Assembly: GCF_030384885.1 (NCBI RefSeq)
Contig: NZ_CP128613.1
DNA length: 64,000 nt
Origin: Escherichia coli
GTDB taxonomy: Bacteria; Pseudomonadota; Gammaproteobacteria; Enterobacterales; Enterobacteriaceae
Strand: one strand, 5' to 3'
Shown here piece after piece: positions 7,228 to 34,324 of this stretch. Position 1 is the first letter of the stretch. Every line of letters begins with the position of its first letter. The position numbers and the translations under genes are program-made. Under the pieces are notes generated by a model. That model was not told the DNA's origin, did not search any database, and was given only the letters and a program-made list of their open reading frames with translations.

Positions 7228-8217
7228 TCAGCGTTTGCTGATCTGATCGAACGTACCGCCGTTAGCAAAATGCTCTTTTTGCGCTTTCGTCCAGCCGCCG
7301 AACTCTTCATCAATGGTGAATAACTTCAATTTTGGAAACGCATTTTCGTACTTTTTCGCTACCTCAGCGTCGCGCGGACGGTAGTAGTTTTTCGCGGCAA
7401 TTTCCTGACCTTCTGGCGAGTAGAGATATTTCAGGTAGGCTTCCGCCACCTCTTTAGTACCTTTTTTCTCAACCACTTTATCGACCACCGACACGGTTGG
7501 CTCTGCGAGGATAGACTCACTCGGCGTGACGATTTCGAATTTATCTTTCCCCAGTTCATTCGCTGCCAGCAGAGCTTCGTTTTCCCAAGCAATCAGTACA
7601 TCGCCAATTCCGCGCTCGACAAAAGTGTTAGTGGAGCCGCGCGCGCCAGAATCCAGAACTTCGACGTTTTTATACAGTGCCCGAACAAAATCCTGCGCTT
7701 TTGCCTGATCGTTGTTGTTGTGGTGCAGCGCGTAGCCCCAGGCAGCCAGGTAGTTCCAGCGCGCGCCACCAGAGCTTTTCGGATTAGGCGTGATCACCGA
7801 AACACCCGGTTTAATCAGATCGTTCCAGTCATGGATCTGCTTCGGATTGCCCTTACGTACCAGGAAAACAATGGTGGAAGTGTACGGTGCGGAGTTATCC
7901 GGCAGACGTTTGATCCACTCTTTATCAATCCGCCCGCGTTCCGCAATTGCGTCCACGTCATAGGCCAGAGCCAGAGTGACAACATCAGCTTCAATACCAT
8001 TGATTACCGACGTCGCTTGTTTGCCTGAACCACCGTGTGACTGACGAATCACCACGTTATCGCCAGTTTGCTGTTTCCAGTGGGCGCTGAATGCCTTGTT
8101 GTACTGTTCGTACAATTCGCGCGTTGGATCATATGAAACGTTAAGAAGCTGAATATCCTTTGCCATAACGCTGGTTGCCGCCAGCAAAAATGTTAACCCT
8201 ACGCCCCACTTGTTCAT
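7228..8217 (-). CDS. sbp: sulfate/thiosulfate-binding periplasmic protein
   Basis: 329-aa ORF with signal peptide; recognised Sbp sequence. Confidence 0.93.
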
Positions 8218-8381
8218 CGCCCGACTCTCTTATGTTGTGTTGTGATGAGCAAAGCGTGCCAGAAGGTTAACCAAACATTAAAGAATAAAAAAAGATTGGC
8301 TATAACTTGCGGGTATATGTTGGGGGATTAAAAAGGCGGAAGAAATCCGCCTCATATTGCTGACAAAGTGCGCTTTGTCCA

Positions 8382-8485
8382 TGCCATATGCGGCGCGAAC
8401 GCCTTACACGGCCTACAAAAGTTTGCAAATTCAATAAATTGCAGAATTCATGTAGGCCTGATAAGCGAAGCGCATCAGGCATTTT
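8382..8485. repeat. REP/BIME palindromic cluster
   Basis: gccatatgcggcgcgaacgccttacacggcctac ... gtaggcctgataagcgaagcgcatcaggc between sbp and pfkA. Confidence 0.75.
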
Positions 8486-8536
8486 TGCTTCTGTCATCGG
8501 TTTCAGGCTAAAGGAATCTGCCTTTTTCCGAAATCA

Positions 8537-9499
8537 TTAATACAGTTTTTTCGCGCAGTCCAGCCAGTCGCCTTTGAACGGACGCTTCATGTTTTCGATA
8601 GCGTCGATGATGTCGTGGTGAACCAGCTGTTCGTTCTGGATACCTACACAACGACCGCCGTAACCTGCCAGCAGCAGTTCAATGGCGTAAGCACCCATAC
8701 GGGAAGCCAGAATACGGTCGTAAGGCACCGGAGAACCACCACGCTGAATGTGGCCCAACACAGTTGCACGGGTTTCACGACCAGTTTCTTTCTCGATGAA
8801 ATGCGCCAGTTCGTCAACATCACACATGTGTTCAGTAATCGCCACGATCGCGTGTTTTTTACCTTTCGCGATACCCGCTTTGATTTCGTTTACCAGGTCT
8901 TCACGGCTGAATTCAACTTCCGGAACTACAACGAATTCACAGCCACCGGCAATGGCCGCAGCCAGGGTCAGATCGCCACAATAACGACCCATCACTTCCA
9001 CCACGGAAATACGCTGGTGAGAAGAAGAGGTGTCACGCAGACGGTCGATCGCTTCTACAACGGTGCTCAGCGCAGTGAAGAAACCGATAGTGTAGTCAGT
9101 GCCTTTGATGTCGTTGTCGATAGTGCCCGGCAGGCCGATGCACGGGAAGCCCATTTCGGTCAGACGCATTGCACCCATGTAGGAACCGTCACCGCCGATA
9201 ACCACCAGCGCGTCGATACCACGTTTTTTCAGGTTTTCGATAGCCACAGCGCGGATGTTCTCGTCGCGGAATTCCGGGAAGCGTGCAGAACCGAGGAACG
9301 TACCGCCACGGTTAATCATGTCAGATACGCTGTAACGGTCTAGCTGTACCATACGGTCTTCATACAGACCCAGATAGCCGTCATAAATACCCATTACTTC
9401 CAGACCTTCTGTCAGCGCAGAACGAACAACCCCGCGAATTGCGGCGTTCATGCCTGGCGCATCACCGCCGCTTGTCAACACACCGATTTTCTTAATCAT
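8537..9499 (-). CDS. pfkA: 6-phosphofructokinase I
   Basis: ORF 8537-9595; start set at [23 protein letters not shown] (320 aa). Confidence 0.95.
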
Positions 9500-9679: not shown

Positions 9680-10582
9680 TTATGAAAGCATAGACCGTTT
9701 ACCCTCCCTGGGTACGACGGAACAGGGGTCCTGATGGATAATCACATCCGATCCCGGAAAACGCCGTAAAATAGCCTGCTCTACCTGATCCGCCACCATA
9801 TGTGCCTGAACCAAAGGCAGAGAGTCTTCCATTTCCAAATGAATCTGAATAAAGCGGGTCGGCCCTGACTGCCGCGTGCGAAGATCGTGAGCGCCGCTAA
9901 CACCCGGCCAGGAAGTCACGATATCAATAATTTCTTGCCGTTCCTCATCAGGTAATGCGCGATCCAGTAATGACTGTACCGCCTCATATCCCATGCGTAA
10001 CGCGCTATATAAAATATAGATGCCGATTCCCAATGCAAACAGAGCATCGGCGCGATGCCAGCCGTACCAGGACAACCCCAGCGCCAGCAGAATTGCGCCG
10101 TTCATCATAACATCAGACTGGTAATGTAGCATATCAGCCCGCACCGCCTGGCTTTGCGTCCGGCGCACCACCCACCGCTGAAATGAGACAAGGATAATCG
10201 TACAAATTAGCGCCACAATTGTTACGATAACCCCGACGCCTGGATCTGTCATCGGTGTTGGAGATACCAGATGTTGAATACCCGTCAAAAACAGGAATAG
10301 TGCCGAACCGGAGATAAACATACTTTGCGCCAGCGCCGCGAGGGACTCAGCTTTACCGTGACCAAACGAGTGATTATCGTCGGCAGGTTGCAGGGAATAT
10401 CGCACCACCAGTAAATTCGTCAACGACGCGCCGATATCCACCAGCGAATCCACCAGCGCGGCGAGAATACTCACCGACCCGGTATACCACCATGCAAAAA
10501 TTTTAATCAGCAATAGCAGCGAAGCCATCGCCGTTGCAGCAATCGCCGCCCGACTGACCAGCCGTCCATAAGATTGATTCAT
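9680..10582 (-). CDS. fieF: cation diffusion facilitator Fe/Zn efflux transporter
   Basis: ORF 9680-10624; start set at [13 protein letters not shown] (300 aa); CDF family membrane protein. Confidence 0.92.
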
Positions 10583-10663
10583 AAATACTCCCGCTATCAA
10601 CTGACGGTAGTATAACGGAAGCAAATCATCTGCAATGCATTAAGCAGTAGGCAAATTGAGGAT

Positions 10664-10730
10664 AAAAAAAACCCCCACATCATGTGGGGGAAGACAGGGA
10701 TGGTGTCTATGGCAAGGAAAACAGGGTTTA
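10664..10730 (-). ncRNA. cpxQ: cpxP 3'UTR-derived small RNA (CpxQ-like), including the terminator hairpin
   Basis: Hairpin cccccacatcatgtggggg plus T-run on the minus strand directly after the cpxP stop; CpxQ is known to be processed from the cpxP 3' end. Boundaries approximate. Confidence 0.5.
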
Positions 10731-11231
10731 CTACTGGGAACGTGAGTTGCTACTACTCAATAGCTTCAACGATGAACTTTTTTGCCATTGCGTCACGTCG
10801 CGCAACTGCTCCATTCGTTGTTGATGTTTCTCGTTTAAAACCGCTTGCTGCTCCGGCGTTAACAGGCGATACATTTGGTTGCGGACTTTTGCCATCTCAA
10901 CCTGACGAGCAATTTGCTCATTCGCCATTTTTTCTGCCTGTGCGCGCACAGCGTTTTCATCAAAATTTTCTGCGGTGACAAGGCGATGCATTGTCTCCAG
11001 TTCGCTAACATTAACAGGCGGCTGTTCGTGCCGGGCCTGTTGCATAAGATCTCGCATCTGCTGACGCTGATGTTCGGTTAAACTTATGCCGTCGAACATA
11101 TGGCTCTGCGTACTGCGCTGCGTAAGTTCTTCACCCGGATGCCAGTTATCGCCTGAACCGACTTCAGCAGCGTGGCTTAATGAACTGACTGCCAGCGTTG
11201 AGGCCATGACGGCAGCGGTAACTATGCGCAT
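10731..11231 (-). CDS. cpxP: periplasmic Cpx pathway inhibitor/adaptor
   Basis: ORF 10731-11234; second ATG gives [21 protein letters not shown] (166 aa); contains LTxxQ motifs. Confidence 0.93.
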
Positions 11232-11304
11232 CATTTGCTCCCAAAATCTTTCTGTCGCGATTCAACGATAGAGAGTTTACGATTCAGGCTGCAAACATGC
11301 GTCA

Positions 11305-11330
11305 GGGGGTGTAAAACAACGTAAAGTCAT
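11305..11330. promoter_or_regulatory. CpxR-P binding site (GTAAA-N5-GTAAA) in the cpxP/cpxRA divergent promoter region
   Basis: gtaaaacaacgtaaag tandem GTAAA boxes between cpxP and cpxR. Confidence 0.7.
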
Positions 11331-11380
11331 GGATTAGCGACGTCTGATGACGTAATTTCTGCCTCGGAGGTATTTAAACA

Positions 11381-12079
11381 ATGAATAAAATCCTGTTAGT
11401 TGATGATGACCGAGAGCTGACTTCCCTGTTAAAGGAGCTGCTCGAGATGGAAGGCTTCAACGTGATTGTTGCCCACGATGGGGAGCAGGCGCTTGATCTT
11501 CTGGACGACAGCATTGATTTACTTTTGCTTGATGTCATGATGCCGAAGAAAAATGGTATCGACACATTAAAAGCACTTCGCCAGACACACCAGACGCCTG
11601 TCATTATGTTGACGGCGCGCGGCAGTGAACTTGATCGCGTTCTCGGCCTTGAGCTGGGCGCAGATGACTATCTCCCGAAACCGTTTAATGATCGTGAGCT
11701 GGTGGCACGTATTCGCGCGATCCTGCGCCGTTCGCACTGGAGCGAGCAACAGCAAAACAACGACAACGGTTCACCGACACTGGAAGTTGATGCCTTAGTG
11801 CTGAATCCAGGCCGTCAGGAAGCCAGCTTCGACGGGCAAACGCTGGAGTTAACCGGCACTGAGTTTACCCTGCTCTATTTGCTGGCACAGCATCTGGGTC
11901 AGGTGGTTTCCCGTGAGCATTTAAGCCAGGAAGTGCTGGGCAAACGCCTGACGCCTTTCGACCGCGCTATCGATATGCACATTTCCAACCTGCGTCGTAA
12001 ACTGCCGGATCGTAAAGATGGTCACCCGTGGTTTAAAACCTTGCGTGGTCGCGGCTATCTGATGGTTTCTGCTTCATGA
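11381..12079 (+). CDS. cpxR: envelope stress response regulator
   Basis: 232-aa OmpR-family response regulator; recognised sequence. Confidence 0.95.
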   Translation: MNKILLVDDDRELTSLLKELLEMEGFNVIVAHDGEQALDLLDDSIDLLLLDVMMPKKNGIDTLKALRQTHQTPVIMLTARGSELDRVLGLELGADDYLPKPFNDRELVARIRAILRRSHWSEQQQNNDNGSPTLEVDALVLNPGRQEASFDGQTLELTGTEFTLLYLLAQHLGQVVSREHLSQEVLGKRLTPFDRAIDMHISNLRRKLPDRKDGHPWFKTLRGRGYLMVSAS

Positions 12080-13449
12080 TAGGCAGCTTAACCGCGCGCA
12101 TCTTCGCCATCTTCTGGCTGACGCTGGCGCTGGTGTTGATGTTGGTTTTGATGTTACCCAAGCTCGATTCACGCCAGATGACCGAGCTTCTGGATAGCGA
12201 ACAGCGTCAGGGGCTGATGATTGAGCAGCATGTCGAAGCGGAACTGGCGAACGATCCGCCCAACGATTTAATGTGGTGGCGGCGTCTGTTCCGGGCGATT
12301 GATAAGTGGGCACCGCCAGGACAGCGTTTGTTATTGGTGACCACCGAGGGCCGCGTGATCGGCGCTGAACGCAGCGAAATGCAGATCATTCGTAACTTTA
12401 TTGGTCAGGCCGATAACGCCGATCATCCGCAGAAGAAAAAGTATGGCCGCGTGGAACTGGTCGGTCCGTTCTCAGTGCGTGATGGCGAAGATAATTACCA
12501 ACTTTATCTGATTCGTCCGGCCAGCAGTTCTCAATCCGATTTCATTAACTTACTGTTTGACCGCCCGCTATTACTGCTGATTGTCACCATGCTGGTCAGT
12601 ACGCCGCTGCTGTTGTGGTTGGCCTGGAGTCTGGCAAAACCGGCGCGTAAGCTGAAAAACGCGGCCGATGAAGTTGCCCAGGGAAACTTACGCCAGCACC
12701 CGGAACTTGAAGCGGGGCCACAGGAATTCCTTGCCGCTGGTGCCAGTTTTAACCAGATGGTCACCGCACTGGAACGTATGATGACCTCCCAGCAGCGCCT
12801 GCTTTCTGATATCTCTCACGAACTGCGCACGCCACTGACGCGCCTGCAACTGGGTACGGCGTTATTGCGCCGTCGTAGTGGTGAAAGCAAGGAACTGGAG
12901 CGTATTGAAACCGAAGCCCAGCGTCTGGACAGCATGATCAACGACCTGTTGGTGATGTCACGTAATCAGCAGAAAAACGCGCTGGTGAGCGAGACATTGA
13001 AAGCTAACCAGTTGTGGGGTGAAGTGCTGGATAACGCGGCGTTCGAAGCGGAACAAATGGGCAAGTCGTTTACGGTTAACTTCCCGCCTGGGCCGTGGCC
13101 TCTGTATGGCAACCCGAACGCTCTGGAAAGTGCGCTGGAAAACATTGTTCGTAATGCTCTGCGTTATTCCCATACGAAGATTGAGGTGGGCTTTGCGGTA
13201 GATAAAGATGGTATCACCATTACGGTGGACGACGATGGTCCTGGCGTTAGCCCGGAAGATCGCGAGCAGATTTTCCGTCCGTTCTATCGCACCGATGAAG
13301 CGCGCGATCGTGAATCTGGCGGTACAGGTCTTGGGCTGGCGATTGTCGAAACCGCCATCCAGCAGCATCGTGGCTGGGTTAAAGCGGAAGACAGCCCGCT
13401 GGGTGGTTTACGACTGGTGATTTGGCTGCCGCTGTATAAGCGGAGTTAA
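12076..13449 (+). CDS. cpxA: envelope stress sensor histidine kinase
   Basis: 457-aa ORF; 4-nt overlap (ATGA) with cpxR; H-box SDISHELRTPLT. Confidence 0.95.
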   Translation: MIGSLTARIFAIFWLTLALVLMLVLMLPKLDSRQMTELLDSEQRQGLMIEQHVEAELANDPPNDLMWWRRLFRAIDKWAPPGQRLLLVTTEGRVIGAERSEMQIIRNFIGQADNADHPQKKKYGRVELVGPFSVRDGEDNYQLYLIRPASSSQSDFINLLFDRPLLLLIVTMLVSTPLLLWLAWSLAKPARKLKNAADEVAQGNLRQHPELEAGPQEFLAAGASFNQMVTALERMMTSQQRLLSDISHELRTPLTRLQLGTALLRRRSGESKELERIETEAQRLDSMINDLLVMSRNQQKNALVSETLKANQLWGEVLDNAAFEAEQMGKSFTVNFPPGPWPLYGNPNALESALENIVRNALRYSHTKIEVGFAVDKDGITITVDDDGPGVSPEDREQIFRPFYRTDEARDRESGGTGLGLAIVETAIQQHRGWVKAEDSPLGGLRLVIWLPLYKRS

Positions 13450-23872: not shown

Positions 23873-24421
23873 ATGGCTGCTCTTACTGCAAGCTGTATTG
23901 CCTTGAATATTCAGGGCAATAGCGATTATTCCATTCTGAGACAGCTGGCTACAATAGCATGTCAAAATGGTTTCATTACCGATTCTCATACGTTTCTGCA
24001 GACCCTACTGCGACGCGAAAAAATGCACTCCACAGGATTTGGTTCTGGCATTGCCGTACCACACGGTAAAAGAGCCTGCGTTAAACTACCCTTCGTGTTA
24101 TTCGCCCGCAAAGCACAGGCCATTAACTGGAAAGCCAGCGACGGCTAAGGCGAAAACCTGATTGTTAATCGTCTCGCCATCCCACATGGCTGGAGCGAAC
24201 AGGAACGCCGTTTTCGTGGATTTTTTATTACCCTCGCCCAACCGCTCGAGGTGAATAACGAAGTCATTAACCATGTGTTGATCGCCTGTGCCGCCGCTGA
24301 TGCGCGCCACGAGTTGAAAATATTCAGCTCTCTGGCAAGCGTACTATGTACGTATCCGGCGGAGACTATTGCCGGGCTAACGGGATATGAAGGGTGTATA
24401 GCGTTACTTCGTCAGGAGTGA
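23873..24421 (+). pseudogene. frvA: PTS EIIA-type (frv-like) remnant interrupted by an in-frame TAA
   Basis: One frame reads ...FGSGIAVPHGKRACV...ASDG-stop(24146-24148)-GENLIVNRLAIPHGWSEQ... to 24421; two IPHG-type EIIA motifs; lies where frvABXR sits in K-12, which spans several kb. Confidence 0.5.
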
Positions 24422-25578: not shown

Positions 25579-25690
25579 TTAATTGCCTTATAAATAGATA
25601 AATAAGAGTGTGAATATAATAAATGAAAAAAGAAAATGTCACTACACGCGTTTTGTTTATAAATAAATCGATAATATTCATAAAATGAAT

Positions 25691-25725
25691 AAGTCCTGTA
25701 ATTTAATTTCTAAATCACAGGACTT
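25691..25725. terminator. hairpin between the 768-aa gene and yiiG
   Basis: Inverted repeat aagtcctgt...acaggactt flanked by T-rich sequence in AT-rich DNA. Confidence 0.45.
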
Positions 25726-25788
25726 ATTTTAACTAACGGCACAACCTTTGCGGGAGGGAGTGTCATGTCCCCCACCATTAATCATGCA

Positions 25789-28095
25789 CTACATCCCGTA
25801 GCGTTCGGCAATAGTGGCATGTTTCTCTTCATTCGCCCCGGCTTCTTTGGCGAGACGCCACCAGCACAACGGATGTTCCCAGTCAGCGGTCAATTCGTGC
25901 AAGGTCTTATCGATATCACCTTTAGAAATTGAACGCGGCGCACTGATAACAAAGTAGAATGCGGGAAGTGGCTGCGCATCTTCACCCTGATGACTGTCCG
26001 TTAACGTATAGTCGTCATTACTGTTGCTCCAGTAGTACCAGTTTCGTTCACGGAGCGCCTCACGGAAAGTATTAAACTCTTCTTCACCAGGCATGACACC
26101 TTCGCAGAACCAGGACTCGCCGTATTCGGTCGGGATAATGGTGTTCAGGCACCCATAAAGCGGAGTGAAATTCTTCCGTTCTTCCTCATCCTCTGGTTGG
26201 GTGTTCAATATTTCTGCATCGAATACCACAACTTCATCAACATGTTGCGGATAATCGGTCCGGTAAGTTGGCTCAATGATCCTTGCTGTTACCGGCCCAA
26301 TACGTTGAGCATAGTAATAGCGGTATTCATAATTTTCCCGGAAGCGGATGTTTAACAGCCCCCATTTTTCGTCAATAAAACCTTCGCCTTCCGTGAGCTC
26401 GATTTCCAGTTCAGCAGCAATAGCACGAACCAAATCCCATTGTTGCAGGATGCTGGCGGTCGCCATGATATCCCACTGGAGATTGCGAATATCTTCTTCA
26501 CGGCTAATCATCAGTTGCTGCAATTGTTGTAAATAATCCAGCTGTCGATCCCAGGCTTCCTGTTTTTGTGCTGCCCAAGAGCACATGCGATAAACGCCAA
26601 CCCACTCACGCCCTTTTTCGTGTTGCAGCAACTGTTGCCCAATCGACTCCAGTTCACTCCAGTCTTCCTGTTGGTTGAGCACTCGCGCACGGAACCACAA
26701 GGCCATATGTAGCAGCCCCGCCTGTTCATACTGCTTCGCCAGGTGCTCAATGGTTTGCAGATCGTCACGGTGGAGCAATAAATCCAACAGATCGAAGCAA
26801 AGACCATTATCTTCCTGGATGTGGCTTTCGACGTAGCGTTGCAGAAGTTCAATCGACTCATCAATCGCATTACAGGCGTTTAACGCATTGACCAGTTTGC
26901 CCAGCAATTCCGCATCATCTGGCGCGTTCAGGTAAGCGCGGCGGAATGTTTCGACGTCTTTTTCTGGATCTGGTTGCGTTTCTTCATCGCTATTTTCAGG
27001 TACTTCTACAACCGGACGAGCAAGCAACTCTGCTTCTTTGGCGGCGATTTTTTCACTCAGTTCGAGAAACTCACGATCAACCCCCAGTAACACGCGTAAT
27101 TTTGGCATGTGTCGCTGGGCCAGTTTCATCGCTATTTTGGCAACCCAGACGGATTCACGCTCCAGCGCCAGGGTAATTTGCAGTTTCGCCAGATCAACCA
27201 CTTTGCGGTGCGCTCCGGCCTGCGAGCGGTGCTCCAGCATTTTTTGGATGATGCGCGCCAGTTGCCAGTTGTTTCTTTGTGGATGACGGGGAAGTAACAC
27301 AGTAATGATTTTCAGCCATGACCCCCATGAATGGGGAGTCAGATCTGACCAACGCGGTAATTCCTCCCAGACTTCTTCGTCCTGCCCGCATAACGCCATG
27401 ATGTACAGTTTTTTGAGGTGATTACTAATGCGGTCGCGGCCCCAGTAATCATTGGCTTCTGTCAGCTCATCAATCAGTATGCGTGCTTCATCATAACGCT
27501 GAAGTTCAATCAGAATATCGGCACGAGTATAAAGTAATGCATCAATATCATCTTCCCCGGCTGCTTTAACTGCGTCGATTTGTCGATCCAGATAAGCCAA
27601 TGCCTCCTCTATTCTTTTGGAATCTATCAGTGCACTGGCATATTCAGTGGACAAACACTGAAAACAGCTCCAGGTCGGATCAATCCGCGCGATGGTTTCT
27701 TCACATACCGCCATACGTTCATTCGCCCAGCCAGGTGCATCAATATTTTCGTAGCAGGCGGATAAATCCTGGGTAACGCAGATAGATTGTGGGCAATCTT
27801 TTGTCTCTTCCCGGTGCGCTTTTTCAAACAGCGCCACTACGTCAGGCAGTACTTTTTCACCTTCTTCGCGGTTAGTCAGGCGATGGCGCATTTCCCAGTG
27901 ACCAATAAAAATCTCCAGCCACGGATTTTTTGCCACCTGGGTAAGTGCTTTTACTTCAGGTAACAGCGAATCGCACTTTTCCATTTGCAGGTGCATAACG
28001 CCTTCCGAATAATCATCGATAAGTTGCGGAATATATTCCTGCCCGGCATCGCGTAACTCCTTAGTATATTTGTGATACCACTCCCATATATCCAT
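25789..28095 (-). CDS. hypothetical 768-aa acidic, predominantly alpha-helical protein, partner of the Hsp90-like ATPase
   Basis: Long uninterrupted ORF; ATG lies 1 nt after the stop of the upstream gene with RBS aagga; sequence is helix-rich and repeat-like; no catalytic motif recognised. Confidence 0.8.
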   Translation of the reverse strand: MDIWEWYHKYTKELRDAGQEYIPQLIDDYSEGVMHLQMEKCDSLLPEVKALTQVAKNPWLEIFIGHWEMRHRLTNREEGEKVLPDVVALFEKAHREETKDCPQSICVTQDLSACYENIDAPGWANERMAVCEETIARIDPTWSCFQCLSTEYASALIDSKRIEEALAYLDRQIDAVKAAGEDDIDALLYTRADILIELQRYDEARILIDELTEANDYWGRDRISNHLKKLYIMALCGQDEEVWEELPRWSDLTPHSWGSWLKIITVLLPRHPQRNNWQLARIIQKMLEHRSQAGAHRKVVDLAKLQITLALERESVWVAKIAMKLAQRHMPKLRVLLGVDREFLELSEKIAAKEAELLARPVVEVPENSDEETQPDPEKDVETFRRAYLNAPDDAELLGKLVNALNACNAIDESIELLQRYVESHIQEDNGLCFDLLDLLLHRDDLQTIEHLAKQYEQAGLLHMALWFRARVLNQQEDWSELESIGQQLLQHEKGREWVGVYRMCSWAAQKQEAWDRQLDYLQQLQQLMISREEDIRNLQWDIMATASILQQWDLVRAIAAELEIELTEGEGFIDEKWGLLNIRFRENYEYRYYYAQRIGPVTARIIEPTYRTDYPQHVDEVVVFDAEILNTQPEDEEERKNFTPLYGCLNTIIPTEYGESWFCEGVMPGEEEFNTFREALRERNWYYWSNSNDDYTLTDSHQGEDAQPLPAFYFVISAPRSISKGDIDKTLHELTADWEHPLCWWRLAKEAGANEEKHATIAERYGM

Positions 28096-28096
28096 T

Positions 28097-29932
28097 TTAT
28101 TTTCCTTGATTAATTAAGACAGGAATAACCTGAGTAAAATCTTCCAGTGCCTGATGTAAATCCCACTGCTGTTCTTTATTACCACTGGAGCACAAAATCA
28201 CTTTCAGCGATTTTAATAACCGTAATGCTGCCGCTGGCTGTTGATGGTGTTGTAATGCCGTCACCAGTTGCATGACACAGGGGTTATTAAGATTGATATA
28301 CAGACTTGAAGTTTTAGTCTTTTGGATTTGCGAGGTAAATTGCCGCGCCAGCATTAACGCTGCGGTGCTGATGCGTTTATCTGCGTCATCCTGTTCGAGA
28401 ATTTGTTTTAATTCTGCTTCGCGGTCTGGCGTGACCACGAGCGGTAAAACCGCTGGTTCGAAGCGGGAGATAATTAATTGCTCGCCGTCGCAAAGATGCT
28501 CTTCCAGATAAGCAACCTGCTCTTCAGGTAATTCTGCCAGGCTGAACAACTGCTCATTACCCGTTTGCGTACCGACTTCGATAATCCGGCAGTGATATAA
28601 CAGCGCCCAACGACGTAAAAATGGCACCACCGCATAACGATCGCCACGGGCTACGGGCCGTTGCAGAATATGAAACAACATCTCTTCAAAACCGCCGTCG
28701 CGGCTTAACAGAATATGAATGCTGTTATTAACGCGTAAATCCTTCGCCAGCAACGCCCCTTTTGACGTTGGCACCTGCAAGCGATCTTTGAGCAAATCAA
28801 ACAGACGGTCATCACATAATGCCGCACCGAGCAACGCTTCGTTGTGGCGCATTAATACACGCCGCCAGATTTCTGGCTGATTTTGTGCGAGATCGGACAA
28901 ACCAGAAATCAGCGCCTCTTTTAACGCCTCCTGCACCGCAACCCAGGTTTCGTCCCGCTGGAGATCTTCCCGGCTCGCCGTAGGCGTTAGTTTCGATGAC
29001 TCAATCACGCCGCCAATAAATCCGGCCCAGGGAGGTAACAACTCACGCGCTTCATCATCCAGTAACATACCGCGCAAAAACAGCGACAGGTTGCGGTTAT
29101 CGCTGGTGCCGTAGGTTGCGCCATCCTGAATCCATAAAATCCCGACCGCATCGCTCATACCCGCTGGCACCACCGGAATGGTGCAAATCGGTTCAAAGGA
29201 GGATTCAAACTGGGCGGCAAAGGCGAGATTTTTACGCTGCACCAGCGCGCGGTGTATGGTTACGCCTTCGGGGGCAACTTCACGCCACGGTGGTTGAAGT
29301 TTATTTACCGGCTCGCTGGCATCGCCGACATAGACCGGTTCGTGCAGCAATATGCAGTAGCGGGAAAGAACGCGGTTCAGCAGATTATTACTCGCCAGAT
29401 GGCTGTACTCTTCTTTGAGCGTCAGAATCACCTGCGTTCCCGGCGCCGAGGACTGATGCGGCGTAACGGTATATTTTTGCCCGTCGGTAGAGTGGTATTT
29501 CCAGCTCTGATCCGGCGTTTGCCAGGATGTGGTCAACACCGTGACCTCTTTCGCCAACACAAAGGCCGACAAAAAACCGAGGCCGAACATACCAATTAAA
29601 CCGGTGTTGTCATCCTGCTGGCGCAACATTCGGGTATAACCCACGCCCACTGTCGCCAGGAAGCCGTGAATTTCGCTTTCTGTCAGACCCGCACCGGTAT
29701 CGGTAATGGTGATGGTGGACTTCGCCACGTCTGCCACTACACGAATTTGGTTATCCTTTGGCGCATCGGGCTGCTCAATCCTGCGGCGAACGATCGCATC
29801 ATGGCCGTTCTGCACCAGCTCGCGCACGGCAACTACGGGAGTGGAGTAAAGATGCTTACTGAGCACCTCAATTAAACCGTTTAAATTAACTTCTGTAGAA
29901 TATGAACTGCCAGGTAACTGTAATGTACTCAT
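28097..29932 (-). CDS. Hsp90/HtpG-like GHKL ATPase paralog (611 aa)
   Basis: Bergerat-fold motifs: N-box RELVQNGHDA, G1 box ITITDTGAGLT, G2 box GMFGLGFLSAFVLAKEVTV; length close to HtpG; in-frame stop two codons upstream of the ATG. Confidence 0.85.
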   Translation of the reverse strand: MSTLQLPGSSYSTEVNLNGLIEVLSKHLYSTPVVAVRELVQNGHDAIVRRRIEQPDAPKDNQIRVVADVAKSTITITDTGAGLTESEIHGFLATVGVGYTRMLRQQDDNTGLIGMFGLGFLSAFVLAKEVTVLTTSWQTPDQSWKYHSTDGQKYTVTPHQSSAPGTQVILTLKEEYSHLASNNLLNRVLSRYCILLHEPVYVGDASEPVNKLQPPWREVAPEGVTIHRALVQRKNLAFAAQFESSFEPICTIPVVPAGMSDAVGILWIQDGATYGTSDNRNLSLFLRGMLLDDEARELLPPWAGFIGGVIESSKLTPTASREDLQRDETWVAVQEALKEALISGLSDLAQNQPEIWRRVLMRHNEALLGAALCDDRLFDLLKDRLQVPTSKGALLAKDLRVNNSIHILLSRDGGFEEMLFHILQRPVARGDRYAVVPFLRRWALLYHCRIIEVGTQTGNEQLFSLAELPEEQVAYLEEHLCDGEQLIISRFEPAVLPLVVTPDREAELKQILEQDDADKRISTAALMLARQFTSQIQKTKTSSLYINLNNPCVMQLVTALQHHQQPAAALRLLKSLKVILCSSGNKEQQWDLHQALEDFTQVIPVLINQGK

Positions 29933-30243
29933 TTTTCAATACTCATAATCCATCACCTACTATTGAAAATACATTGCTGTTTTTTACAACCGGTGCAAGG
30001 TTTGTTATTTGCATTCACTCATCGGAAACATTTATTTATTGACGCGATGATTAAAACAAAATGTCTTATATAAATAATGATTAATTCTTAAAGGATTAAT
30101 GCGACTGGAGTATATCGATATAAACTGGAATTAACGAGATAATTTCTTGTGGTGAAATTATTATTTAAATGCTGAATAATATATTGAGGATTATTTAATA
30201 GAAAAATAAAACCGCAATCCAGAATCAGAATTGCGGTATTTCT

Positions 30244-31080
30244 TTAATTATGAATCAAACGCTGCGGATGGGTATAAACCGTTGCCCGACCCGGCTTACA
30301 AAAGCCCACCAGCGTCAAATTACAGCGCTCAGCCACTTCTACGGCAAGCGTGGTCGCGGCAGACACCGCAAACAAAATTTCTACGCCGCACATCGCTGAC
30401 TTTTGCACCATTTCATAACTGGCACGACTGGAAACCAGCACCGCACCTTGATGCCAGCTTTCCCCTTCTTGTGACCGGCGGCCTAACAGTTTATCCAGCG
30501 CCACATGGCGACCCACGTCTTCATGCCCGCCTACCAGTTCGCCAGATGGCAACATCCAGGCAGCGGCGTGAGTACAACCAGTCAGTTGCCCCACTGGCTG
30601 GAAATCATTGAGATGGCGTAATGCATCATCCAGTTTGTTGAGATCAAATGTCTGAGTGAACGGCAGCGGCTGCACCGGTTTACCGATGTCATTAAGTTGC
30701 TCCACGCCGCACACGCCACATCCCGTACGTCCCGCCAGTGCCCGACGACGCTCCTTCAACCCCATAAAGCGGCGGCTGGAAAGCTCAATTTGCACTTCCA
30801 GACCATTACAGGAAGGAACGACATCCATGCCAAAGATATCGCGCGGACTTTCGATAATCCCCTCGGAAAGCGAAAAACCGAGCGCAAAGTATTCAAGGTC
30901 TTTGGGCGACGCCATCATCACCACATGCGAAATGCCGTTGTAGACCAGCGCAACGGGAACCTCTTCCGCCACCTCATCTAACCGTGGGTGTTGTAAATCG
31001 TCACGCCGCCATAACTCAATTTGACGAACACCTGTGACATTTGTCACATTTTTGATTTCTTTTTGCTGTGTTTTTTTCAC
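30244..31080 (-). CDS. fdhD: formate dehydrogenase sulfurtransferase/accessory protein
   Basis: 278-aa ORF; recognised FdhD sequence (GRTGCGVCG motif); divergent from fdoG. Confidence 0.92.
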
Positions 31081-31273: not shown

Positions 31274-34200
31274 ATGCAGGTCAGCAGAAGGCAGTTCTTT
31301 AAGATCTGCGCTGGCGGTATGGCAGGCACCACGGCAGCGGCACTGGGTTTTGCACCCAGCGTAGCACTCGCGGAAACCCGGCAGTATAAACTGCTGCGCA
31401 CCCGCGAAACCCGTAATACCTGCACCTATTGTTCCGTAGGCTGTGGGCTGTTGATGTACAGCCTCGGTGACGGAGCAAAAAACGCCAAAGCATCTATCTT
31501 CCATATCGAAGGTGACCCGGATCACCCGGTCAACCGCGGTGCACTTTGTCCGAAAGGCGCTGGCCTGGTGGATTTCATCCACTCCGAAAGCCGTCTGAAG
31601 TTCCCGGAATACCGTGCCCCTGGTTCTGATAAATGGCAGCAAATCAGTTGGGAAGAAGCGTTTGATCGCATCGCCAAATTGATGAAAGAAGACCGCGATG
31701 CTAACTACATTGCGCAAAACGCCGAAGGCGTGACTGTTAACCGCTGGCTCTCCACCGGAATGCTGTGTGCTTCCGCGTCGAGTAACGAAACCGGCTATTT
31801 AACGCAAAAATTCTCCCGCGCGCTGGGTATGCTCGCGGTCGACAACCAGGCGCGTGTCTGACACGGACCAACGGTAGCAAGTCTTGCTCCAACATTTGGT
31901 CGCGGTGCGATGACCAACCACTGGGTCGACATCAAGAACGCCAACCTCGTCGTGGTGATGGGCGGTAACGCCGCTGAAGCTCACCCGGTCGGGTTCCGCT
32001 GGGCGATGGAAGCCAAAATTCACAACGGCGCGAAGCTGATTGTGATCGATCCTCGCTTTACGCGTACGGCGGCGGTGGCTGACTACTATGCCCCTATTCG
32101 TTCCGGTACTGACATTGCTTTCCTGTCAGGCGTATTGCTGTACCTGCTGAACAATGAAAAATTCAACCGCGAATACACCGAAGCCTATACCAACGCCAGC
32201 CTGATCGTGCGTGAGGATTACGGCTTTGAAGATGGCCTGTTCACCGGCTACGACGCGGAAAAACGCAAGTACGATAAATCCAGCTGGACCTACGAGCTGG
32301 ACGAAAACGGCTTCGCCAAACGCGATACCACGCTGCAACATCCGCGCTGCGTGTGGAACTTGCTGAAACAGCACGTTTCCCGTTATACGCCAGATGTGGT
32401 TGAAAACATCTGTGGCACGCCGAAAGACGCGTTCCTGAAAGTCTGCGAATACATCGCAGAGACCAGTGCTCACGATAAAACTGCCTCGTTCCTTTACGCG
32501 CTCGGCTGGACGCAACACTCCGTTGGTGCGCAGAACATTCGTACGATGGCGATGATCCAGCTACTGCTCGGCAATATGGGGATGGCAGGCGGCGGCGTTA
32601 ACGCCCTGCGCGGTCACTCCAACATTCAGGGGCTGACGGACCTGGGGCTGCTGTCGCAGAGCCTGCCAGGTTACATGACGCTGCCAAGCGAGAAGCAGAC
32701 CGATCTGCAAACCTACCTTGCCGCCAATACGCCGAAACCGCTGCTGGAAGGCCAGGTTAACTACTGGGGCAATTACCCGAAATTCTTCGTCTCCATGATG
32801 AAGGCCTTCTTTGGTGATAAAGCGACGGCAGAAAACAGCTGGGGCTTTGACTGGTTGCCGAAGTGGGATAAAGGCTACGACGTCCTGCAATACTTCGAGA
32901 TGATGAAAGAGGGCAAGGTCAATGGCTATATCTGCCAGGGCTTTAACCCTGTTGCCTCATTCCCGAACAAAAACAAAGTGATCGGTTGTCTGTCGAAACT
33001 GAAGTTCCTCGTCACTATCGACCCGCTGAACACTGAAACCTCTAACTTCTGGCAGAACCACGGTGAGCTGAACGAAGTGGACTCGTCGAAGATCCAGACC
33101 GAAGTGTTCCGTCTGCCATCGACCTGCTTCGCGGAAGAGAACGGTTCAATCGTTAACTCCGGTCGCTGGTTGCAGTGGCACTGGAAAGGTGCGGACGCCC
33201 CAGGGATTGCGCTGACTGATGGCGAGATCCTCTCCGGTATCTTCCTGCGCTTGCGCAAGATGTACGCCGAACAGGGTGGCGCGAACCCGGACCAGGTGCT
33301 GAACATGACCTGGAACTACGCCATCCCGCATGAGCCGAAGTCGGAAGAAGTGGCGATGGAGAGCAACGGTAAGGCGCTGGCCGATATTACCGATCCGGCA
33401 ACCGGGGCGGTTATCGTCAAGAAAGGCCAACAACTTAGCTCGTTCGCCCAACTGCGCGATGACGGTACCACCTCCTGTGGCTGCTGGATTTTCGCCGGTA
33501 GCTGGACGCCAGAGGGCAACCAGATGGCACGCCGTGATAACGCCGATCCGTCTGGCCTCGGTAACACGCTGGGCTGGGCATGGGCATGGCCGCTTAACCG
33601 CCGCATTCTGTATAACCGCGCCTCCGCAGATCCGCAGGGTAACCCGTGGGATCCGAAGCGTCAGTTGCTGAAATGGGACGGCACCAAATGGACCGGCTGG
33701 GATATTCCGGACTACAGCGCAGCGCCTCCGGGCAGTGGCGTCGGGCCGTTTATCATGCAGCAGGAAGGCATGGGGCGTCTGTTTGCCCTCGATAAGATGG
33801 CGGAAGGTCCGTTCCCGGAACACTACGAGCCGTTTGAAACGCCGCTGGGAACTAACCCACTGCATCCAAACGTTATCTCGAACCCGGCGGCGCGAATCTT
33901 TAAAGACGATGCCGAAGCATTGGGTAAAGCCGATAAGTTCCCGTATGTCGGAACCACCTATCGTCTGACCGAGCACTTCCACTACTGGACCAAACACGCG
34001 CTGTTGAATGCGATTTTGCAGCCAGAGCAGTTTGTGGAAATCGGGGAGTCGCTGGCGAATAAACTTGGCATTGCCCAGGGCGATACCGTGAAAGTCTCCT
34101 CCAACCGTGGCTATATCAAAGCCAAAGCGGTGGTGACCAAACGTATTCGTACGCTAAAAGCGAACGGCAAAGATATCGATACCATCGGTATTCCGATTCA

Positions 34201-34324
34201 CTGGGGCTATGAAGGTGTTGCGAAAAAAGGCTTTATTGCCAACACGTTAACGCCATTCGTTGGTGATGCGAACACGCAGACGCCGGAGTTTAAGTCCTTC
34301 CTTGTGAATGTGGAAAAGGTGTAA
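31274..34324 (+). CDS. fdoG: formate dehydrogenase-O catalytic subunit (selenoprotein; in-frame UGA at 31859-31861)
   Basis: ORFs 31274-31861 and 31910-34324 share one frame and are joined through TGA (..DNQARV-U-HGPTVASLAPTFG..); twin-arginine signal MQVSRRQFFKICAGG; 1016 codons. Confidence 0.93.
31859..31910 (+). promoter_or_regulatory. UGA(Sec) codon plus downstream SECIS-type stem-loop
   Basis: Directly 3' of the in-frame UGA, as bacterial SECIS elements are; the fold was not computed. Confidence 0.6.

Follow-up and report, generated by a model that had tools for sequence, protein, structure and literature searches.

In eukaryotes, Hsp90 ATPases work with co-chaperones that carry tetratricopeptide repeats (TPRs), among them Hop/Sti1, PP5 and FKBP51/52, as well as Sgt1, which is joined by the Cys/His-rich CHORD protein Rar1. 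Bacterial Hsp90 is poorly understood. Its divergent lineages were catalogued in 2006 and fall into Groups A, B and C (Chen et al. 2006, PMC1525184), later named Hsp90A, Hsp90B and Hsp90C (Press et al. 2013, PMC3708813). Gammaproteobacteria, Xanthomonas among those sampled, were reported in Groups A and C, and Group C was found to have the shortest variable regions of the three (PMC1525184). No obligate bacterial Hsp90 co-chaperone is known (PMC3708813). Here, we describe a gene for a 611-aa ATPase and its downstream neighbour, which encodes a 768-aa protein (hereafter, the partner), in a 64,000-nucleotide stretch of Escherichia coli DNA (contig NZ_CP128613.1, hereafter the window, to which all coordinates refer). 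The window is from the E. coli chromosome and was 100% identical to strain 2013C-4282 across the 4.4 kb compared.

The 611-aa protein is supported by sequence profiles and a predicted structure as a genuine, deeply divergent member of the Hsp90 family with N-terminal, middle and C-terminal domains. Its gene is the first of a two-gene operon with that of the partner, which starts 1 nt past the stop codon of the ATPase gene. The two genes and the motifs of the ATPase are as follows.

28097-29932, minus strand: coding sequence of the 611-aa divergent Hsp90-family ATPase (WP_000105777; RefSeq name 'ATP-binding protein'), the end coordinate including the stop codon
29795-29824, minus strand: GHKL motif I (N-box), R37-A46, RELVQNGHDA, with catalytic Glu38 and Mg-binding Asn42
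29681-29701, minus strand: GHKL motif II (G1 box), D78-T84, DTGAGLT, with adenine-contacting Asp78
29558-29593, minus strand: GHKL motif III (G2 box), G114-V125, GMFGLGFLSAFV, with a shortened lid between motifs II and III
29435-29440, minus strand: GHKL motif IV, G165-T166, aligned to the 'GT' of HtpG
28958-28981, minus strand: middle-domain catalytic loop, T318-Q325, TASREDLQ, in which R321 aligns to the Arg of HtpG NVSREILQ and TRAP1 LSRELLQ
25789-28095, minus strand: coding sequence of the 768-aa partner (WP_000355936), named hypothetical or tetratricopeptide repeat protein

A first-pass annotation of the window had read a complete set of Bergerat-fold ATP-binding motifs at 29573-29821, a span that runs from the codon of E38 to that of F120 and comprises the N-box from its Glu, the G1 box and the G2 core G114-M-F-G117-L-G119-F120. 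All three motifs were present as described, and conservation was examined in an alignment of 44 family members with 35-47% identity to the query. Specifically, E38, N42 and D45 of the N-box, D78, G80 and G82 of the G1 box, and G114, G117 and G119 of the G2 box were invariant, and the HtpG string with which the latter had been compared, GQFGVGFYSAF, was quoted correctly. A fourth GHKL motif, absent from that annotation, was located at G165-T166 in PGTQVILTLK, which corresponds to RGTEITLHLR of HtpG. G165 and E322 were also invariant, T166 was the sole GHKL-motif residue tested that was not, and R321 was kept in at least 90% of the relatives. In the alignment to HtpG, E38 is equivalent to E34 (the catalytic Glu, altered in the HtpG E34A mutant used in PMC3708813), N42 to N38 (the N-box Asn), D45 to D41 (the N-box Asp) and D78 to D80 (the G1-box Asp), while GMFGLGF matches GQFGVGF of the G2 box, G165-T166 matches the 'GT' of motif IV, and R321 in TASREDLQ matches the middle-domain catalytic Arg in NVSREILQ. 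The lid between the G1 and G2 boxes is retained at a length 5-6 residues below that of HtpG, with the family consensus LATIGxGYTRxLR and a predicted local distance difference test score (pLDDT) of 74-78.

Profile searches placed the protein in Hsp90 and not in another GHKL clade. The best model was NCBIfam NF010683 (PRK14083), 'HSP90 family protein' (E 1.3e-85, 288.1 bits, residues 13-571), followed by the HtpG model NF003555 (E 6.6e-58, 196.6 bits, residues 14-385); both scores fall below the curated cut-offs, which are 455 bits for NF010683 and 371 bits for the equivalog NF003555. Pfam matches were to HATPase_c_3 (E 5.8e-9, residues 32-150) and HSP90 (E 1.1e-7, residues 274-353), and no HisKA/DHp, nuclease or transducer-Lys domain was matched in Pfam. 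In phmmer searches of the PDB, TRAP1 and HtpG were retrieved at about 1e-29 over residues 10-359, and matches to TRAP1, HtpG, GRP94 and cytosolic Hsp90s ranged from 1e-29 to 1e-19. An exhaustive search of 1.84 billion cluster representatives returned 502 relatives at E <= 1e-30, and roughly fifty near-full-length relatives with 35-52% identity were found among 150 listed of the 502.

We then modelled the structure of the monomer using AlphaFold2 and the 44-member alignment (pLDDT 89, predicted template-modelling score 0.83). The top 50 Foldseek matches in the PDB were all full-length HtpG, Hsp90, TRAP1 or GRP94 structures, with template-modelling (TM) scores of 0.58-0.71 over about 650 aligned columns and E values down to 3e-38, the best being an integrative DnaK-HtpG model. 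Because the model superposes on full-length Hsp90s, the middle and C-terminal domains that had been suggested from the length of the protein are present at the level of the fold. The ratio of nonsynonymous to synonymous substitution rates (dN/dS) was 0.04 in comparison with the Escherichia whittamii orthologue, indicating that the gene is not decaying, and, together with the invariance of the catalytic set in relatives, this predicts an active ATPase rather than a decayed paralogue, as the first-pass annotation had proposed. Neither assignment to a kinase or other GHKL clade nor loss of a catalytic residue, which that annotation had named as grounds for rejecting its proposal, was found. Other GHKL identities were rejected. 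A histidine kinase is at odds with the position of the GHKL domain at the extreme N-terminus, a HATPase_c match of just E 0.001 and fold matches that include no kinase; MutL and gyrase were ruled out by the profile and fold searches.

Judged by sequence, the 611-aa protein is not an HtpG orthologue, since it scores below both NCBIfam cut-offs, but a second Hsp90 in addition to HtpG. While htpG proper was present in 5424 of the 5426 complete E. coli genomes and is in effect universal, the 611-aa gene was detected in 256 of them (5%) and is accessory. The protein shares with E. coli HtpG, a Group A or Hsp90A member, the three-domain fold (TM about 0.7), GHKL motifs I-IV, the E38/E34 equivalence and the Arg of the SRExLQ loop; it differs in a C-terminal domain that could not be aligned by sequence, a shorter lid and shorter loops at several positions, a conserved operon partner, and an upstream region in which no heat-shock promoter was seen. 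BLASTP to K-12 HtpG gave 26% identity over residues 20-357, and identity to Streptomyces genes annotated as 'HSP90 family protein' was higher, at 35%. These short loops, the best match to NF010683 and the closeness to Streptomyces suggest that the protein may belong to Group C. The 288-bit score lies below the 455-bit cut-off of NF010683, however, and the accounts of Group C (PMC1525184, PMC3708813) describe neither a partner gene nor a function.

Public names for the same or nearly identical proteins were 'molecular chaperone HtpG', 'heat shock protein (Hsp90-family)' and 'Hsp90xo protein'. The Hsp90 interpretation is therefore right but not new, and the motif observation adds nothing to an identity that public annotation already holds. 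The motif finding itself is correct but ordinary; it is the surrounding two-gene system that is uncharacterised.

The second gene of this system encodes a protein with the following features, and the operon is bounded as listed below them.

27655-27795, minus strand: partner C101-C147, with invariant C101, C106, C144 and C147, a metal site suggested by conservation
26410-26967, minus strand: partner residues 377-562, a genuine TPR superhelix
25792-26373, minus strand: partner residues 575-768, an alpha/beta domain with the PEDEEE loop and the ERYG(L/M) C-terminus
29933-30210, minus strand: AT-rich 5' region of the operon, about 280 bp
30211-30237, minus strand: terminator-like hairpin directly after fdhD, part of the insert described below
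25688-25728, minus strand: terminator hairpin 3' of the partner gene; in K-12 the same hairpin lies directly after fdhD
25733-30243, no strand assigned: 4.5-kb insert relative to K-12, from the fdhD stop codon to the shared hairpin, the left border being approximate

In an alignment of 30 partner orthologues, the best-conserved stretch was residues 61-150, which holds the conserved Cys and His residues: C101, C106, C144, C147 and H66 were invariant, and C114 and H94 nearly so. This pattern suggests a four-Cys (Cys4) metal site. Other conserved features were an N-terminal M..W.W helix, the PEDEEE loop and the ERYG(L/M) C-terminus. The AlphaFold2 model of the partner (pLDDT 91.7) was all-helical over residues 1-358, followed by a disordered linker (360-376), a second helical block (377-562) and an alpha/beta domain (575-768), and its tandem helix-turn-helix repeats match TPR profiles. 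The predicted structure thus comprises a helical domain with the Cys4 motif, a pair of TPR blocks and, at the C-terminus, an orphan alpha/beta domain. The helical part resembles ligand- or peptide-binding TPR sensors, namely MalT domain III, AimR, Rap and NprR. The C-terminal domain had no sequence match in Pfam, NCBIfam, PHROGs or the PDB; M. tuberculosis 'paralogous family 11' was considered as a relative of the C-terminal 200 residues and rejected, the best match having a nonsignificant E of 0.02. Likewise, scans of PADLOC, PHROGs and NCBIfam returned nothing for the partner, and only Hsp90 or GHKL models for the ATPase. The partner dN/dS was 0.10, which indicates purifying selection.

The two ends of the partner, at 25792-25809 (ERYG followed by L/M) and 28078-28095 (M..W.W), both on the minus strand, were among its most conserved features across phyla, which suggests that they could be terminal docking motifs. 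In four Pseudomonas species (L075, L077, L079 and L080; about 7820-8920 in each locus) the partner comprises just the first 334-367 residues, that is, the Cys4 region and the first TPR block, with the second TPR block and the C-terminal domain missing; the short proteins are 364-367 aa long. At one of these loci (L077), the gene after the short partner encodes a methyl-accepting chemotaxis protein.

We examined the inheritance of the pair by scanning a single genome from each of 100,044 species for two family motifs, which identified 361 loci, 80 of which were retrieved. These came from Superficieibacter, Phytobacter and Pantoea, from many Xanthomonas, Stenotrophomonas, Lysobacter and Pseudomonas (including P. 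aeruginosa PA7), from Wohlfahrtiimonas, Azonexus and Variovorax, and from Holophaga, a Chloroflexi metagenome-assembled genome (MAG) and Desulfovibrio. With the 768-aa protein as tblastn query, 76 of the 80 loci had a partner homologue immediately downstream in the same orientation, spanning Gamma- and Betaproteobacteria, Holophaga and the Chloroflexi MAG. Three of the remaining four loci were cut by a contig end; in the fourth, from Thorsellia, aspS lies downstream of the ATPase gene and a full-length partner orthologue is located elsewhere in the genome. The gap between the ATPase and partner genes had a median of 24 nt (range -4 to 122), and the flanking genes beyond the pair were unrelated between genera. 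The pair looks genus-wide in Xanthomonas and Stenotrophomonas. No fusion of the Hsp90 paralogue with partner domains was found among 270 retrieved proteins, and, based on plasmid and phage collections, the family is essentially chromosomal, the few 'plasmid' or 'phage' matches looking like chromosomal segments or mis-filed bacterial contigs. In Diaphorobacter and Variovorax (L074 and L078; about 10215-12650) the next gene in the same orientation after the pair encodes a protein of about 800 aa, putatively of DUF5682 type.

In a P. aeruginosa record the ATPase is 57% identical, the gene order is the same, and the pair is placed between a LysR gene and the liv/bra operon, among core chromosomal genes; the partner from strain PA7 has 40.6% identity. 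Based on this gene order and the PAO1 numbering, rather than on sequence comparison, we take the pair to be PA1068/PA1069. One study remarked that PA1069 seems to share an operon with an Hsp90 gene and reported its induction by Ca2+ or by growth as a biofilm (PMC4053335); in other work it fell about 4-fold after heat shock at 46 C (PMC4957987 Table 4), and it has been detected as a protein, being present in proteomic and co-immunoprecipitation lists. The P. aeruginosa pair is thus orthologous by position, but is core chromosomal where that of E. coli is accessory, and its mentions are incidental ones in omics studies. The literature searched yielded no functional study of this Hsp90 lineage, PA1068/PA1069 included, and no description of the conserved partner beyond the one-line remark on PA1069.

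Upstream of the E. coli operon, no sigma-70 or sigma-32 consensus was seen in the AT-rich 5' region, and promoter scans gave matches no more frequent than in shuffled sequence. Since no sigma-32-type promoter was seen and PA1069 falls about 4-fold after 46 C, the module does not look heat-inducible, or like a classical heat-shock gene. An Rfam scan of the insert exposed no RNA family and no thermometer. A five-codon mini-ORF, ATG AGT ATT GAA AAA TGA (MSIEK*; 29929-29946, minus strand), ends in a TGA overlapping the Hsp90 start codon ATG (within AATGA), and could be due to chance or be a translational-coupling or leader element.

Comparison with K-12 shows the pair to be one clean indel of about 4.5 kb between fdhD and yiiG (about 25733-30243). 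The right border is exactly the fdhD stop codon, and the K-12 fdhD-yiiG spacer is 152 bp long and opens with the hairpin that in the window trails the 768-aa gene. A transposon or integrative-element origin was rejected because a repeat search detected no direct or inverted repeats flanking the insert. The pair was present at this fixed locus in several Escherichia species. The same or a nearly identical ATPase is on record from some E. coli, from E. fergusonii, E. marmotae and E. ruysiae, and from Escherichia lineages without a species name. In the E. coli genomes that carry it, the insert was 90-97% identical to the window, while fdhD was 94-96% identical to it in sampled non-carrier E. coli genomes. 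The divergence of the insert is therefore close to that of a core gene, which fits old, vertically inherited DNA lost in most lineages over recent transfer.

Several other observations concern the flanks, which consist of the housekeeping genes rha, frv, yiiG and fdhD/fdo. The fdhD of the window strain (29933-30700 compared) had a match of at least 99% in just 5 of 5424 records; this and the 94-96% identity to sampled E. coli place the strain in a rare, divergent lineage. The formate dehydrogenase alpha subunit (31274-34324, plus strand) was split in the list of open reading frames (ORFs) into 195 aa and 804 aa by an in-frame TGA at 31859-31861, presumably the selenocysteine codon of fdoG, as RefSeq annotates a single coding sequence that spans both ORFs. 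Finally, the frv operon is represented in the window by two short pseudogene fragments, the frvA N-terminus and the frvR C-terminus (23873-24421, plus strand); a full-length frvR adjoins yiiG in K-12, and this therefore reflects an frv deletion in the window strain.

On balance, the 611-aa protein is probably a divergent second Hsp90 whose clamp acts on or with the co-encoded 768-aa partner, and which has no classical heat-shock role. By analogy with the established Hsp90 cycle, the protein would form a dimer joined at the C-terminal ends; ATP binding would close the short lid and bring the two N-terminal domains together; and Arg321 would complete the active site, with hydrolysis reopening the clamp. 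The clamp would then act on or through the partner, which is the weakest step of the scheme. The partner might be an obligate adaptor or co-chaperone that brings substrates via its TPR superhelices, or it might be a dedicated client, the Cys4 or orphan C-terminal domain of which needs ATP-driven remodelling. We tentatively propose, while considering it less likely than not, that the partner may serve a bacterial Hsp90 as an obligate co-chaperone or be its dedicated client, encoded in the genome, which would be the first such case. As in the eukaryotic systems, an Hsp90 ATPase is paired with a TPR protein, and here the partner also has a Cys-rich domain that likely binds metal. The bacterial partner differs in that it is unrelated in sequence to the eukaryotic co-chaperones and encoded in the same operon, and the paralogue differs in having no conserved MEEVD-type end.

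Four points weigh against a clamp that acts on its partner. First, the link between ATPase and partner consists of co-occurrence and operon structure. Second, the family alignment revealed no conserved MEEVD-like C-terminus on the Hsp90 paralogue: the C-termini vary (…NQGK, …VGDN, …SKGE, …IGGE) and conservation is lowest in the last 40 residues, so that the docking of MEEVD into a TPR clamp used in eukaryotes is unavailable. Third, half of the partner is dispensable, given that the four Pseudomonas species retain only its first 334-367 residues, a pattern more in keeping with an adaptor than with one fixed client. Fourth, the TIR, SLOG-like and SLATT neighbours of distant relatives, detailed below, possibly point to a role in conflict that a chaperone would not explain.

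The longer of these distant relatives come from metagenomic contigs. In three (L085-L087, 5001-10600), an apparent operon encodes an 845-aa Hsp90-like protein with 32% identity, then TPR (415 aa), TIR (378 aa) and LD_cluster2/3 (SLOG-type; 221 aa) proteins, a combination that resembles a conflict system with an Hsp90-like ATPase at its centre. In another (L090, 243-5910), a SLATT-domain protein is encoded after two Hsp90-like genes in tandem, of 620 aa and 908 aa. An 853-aa Hsp90-like relative is preceded by a TPR gene and has resolvase and TrbC genes nearby, and two Hsp90 relatives of 611 aa and 616 aa, with about 30% identity, are followed by a 351-aa TPR protein and a 416-aa helical protein, respectively, the former sharing the N-terminal M..W.W helix with the 768-aa partner. 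An Hsp90-like ATPase with a TPR partner thus seems to be an old module, some branches of which have typical conflict effectors.

The E. coli pair might itself be an anti-phage or conflict module, in which the ATPase is a switch or threshold device, the TPR part senses an invader protein or peptide, and the C-terminal domain is the effector. We regard this as unlikely, although it is the best surviving alternative. Besides the relatives linked to TPR, TIR and LD_cluster, to SLATT, and to resolvase and TrbC, it gains from the modular C-terminal half of the partner, which some Pseudomonas lack, from the restriction of the pair to 256 of 5426 E. coli genomes with flanks that differ between genera, from a weak N-domain match to PADLOC TmtA (E 5e-6, residues 13-137), and from 'molecular chaperone HtpG' being among the neighbour names that raise defence predictions in DefensePredictor (Table S3, Shapley values [SHAP]). 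Still, in PADLOC-DB 2.0 the ATPase was matched at the bare GHKL domain only and the partner not at all, profile searches found no recognisable toxic or effector domain, and neither WP_000105777 nor WP_000355936 appeared in the portions of the DefensePredictor supplements searched. The genomic setting also argues against it: the pair has housekeeping flanks rather than a defence island, the insert carries no marks of a mobile element, the locus is fixed in Escherichia with fdhD-like divergence and strong purifying selection, and the pair apparently extends throughout Xanthomonas and Stenotrophomonas and, in P. aeruginosa, lies between core genes. Moreover, the effector-linked relatives are a different, longer subfamily. 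They share with the E. coli module an Hsp90-fold ATPase, about 30% identical over residues 10-570, and an adjacent TPR protein; however, their ATPases are 845-908 aa long, their partners of 415-451 aa have no Cys4, and their operons have additional effector genes, none of which is in the E. coli module.

It is considerably less probable that the 611-aa protein is a redundant general heat-shock chaperone, in effect an HtpG isoform, with a functionally unrelated gene as its neighbour. The fold and catalytic residues are those of HtpG, and some databases use the name 'molecular chaperone HtpG'. Against this, the 26% identity is confined to the N and middle domains, the score on the HtpG equivalog is 196 bits where 371 are required, the partner is co-inherited in 76 of 80 loci at near-zero spacing, no heat-shock promoter was seen, and the presumed partner gene of P. 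aeruginosa is down on heat shock. A decayed or catalytically silent paralogue, which keeps the fold but does not turn over ATP, is very improbable: the lid falls 5-6 residues short of that of HtpG and its model confidence is lower, yet the catalytic and nucleotide-contacting residues are invariant in the 44 relatives and dN/dS is 0.04. As for a non-Hsp90 GHKL enzyme (a histidine kinase, a MutL/MORC- or topoisomerase-type ATPase, or a GHKL restriction enzyme), we consider this next to negligible, given that the weak N-domain matches to the NCBIfam restriction-enzyme family (BbrUII/HgiDII, E 1.6e-9), the sacsin N-terminal region (E 4e-7) and HATPase_c (E 0.001) cover the shared GHKL domain only and score far under the Hsp90 models, and that the whole-chain fold matches Hsp90s only, with no HisKA, DHp, nuclease or transducer-Lys domain.

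A divergent Hsp90 that works on or with its co-encoded partner thus remains the reading that we prefer. Across several bacterial phyla, a very divergent Hsp90 paralogue that looks catalytically intact is inherited together with one specific TPR/Cys4 protein, and this strictly co-inherited partner is of real interest because no obligate co-chaperone of a bacterial Hsp90 is known (PMC3708813). The pair is a simple, genetically tractable two-gene system in which to pursue the question of bacterial Hsp90 and a dedicated helper or client. It also raises the question of whether Hsp90-type clamps have been recruited into bacterial conflict systems. Should the pair be an Hsp90-gated sensor/effector module, in which the TPR/Cys4 partner is restrained or activated by the ATP-driven clamp, a version that we hold to be doubtful, it would be related to the metagenomic TIR-, SLOG- and SLATT-linked Hsp90-like operons and would parallel, in bacteria, the Hsp90-Sgt1-CHORD control that acts on plant NLR receptors.

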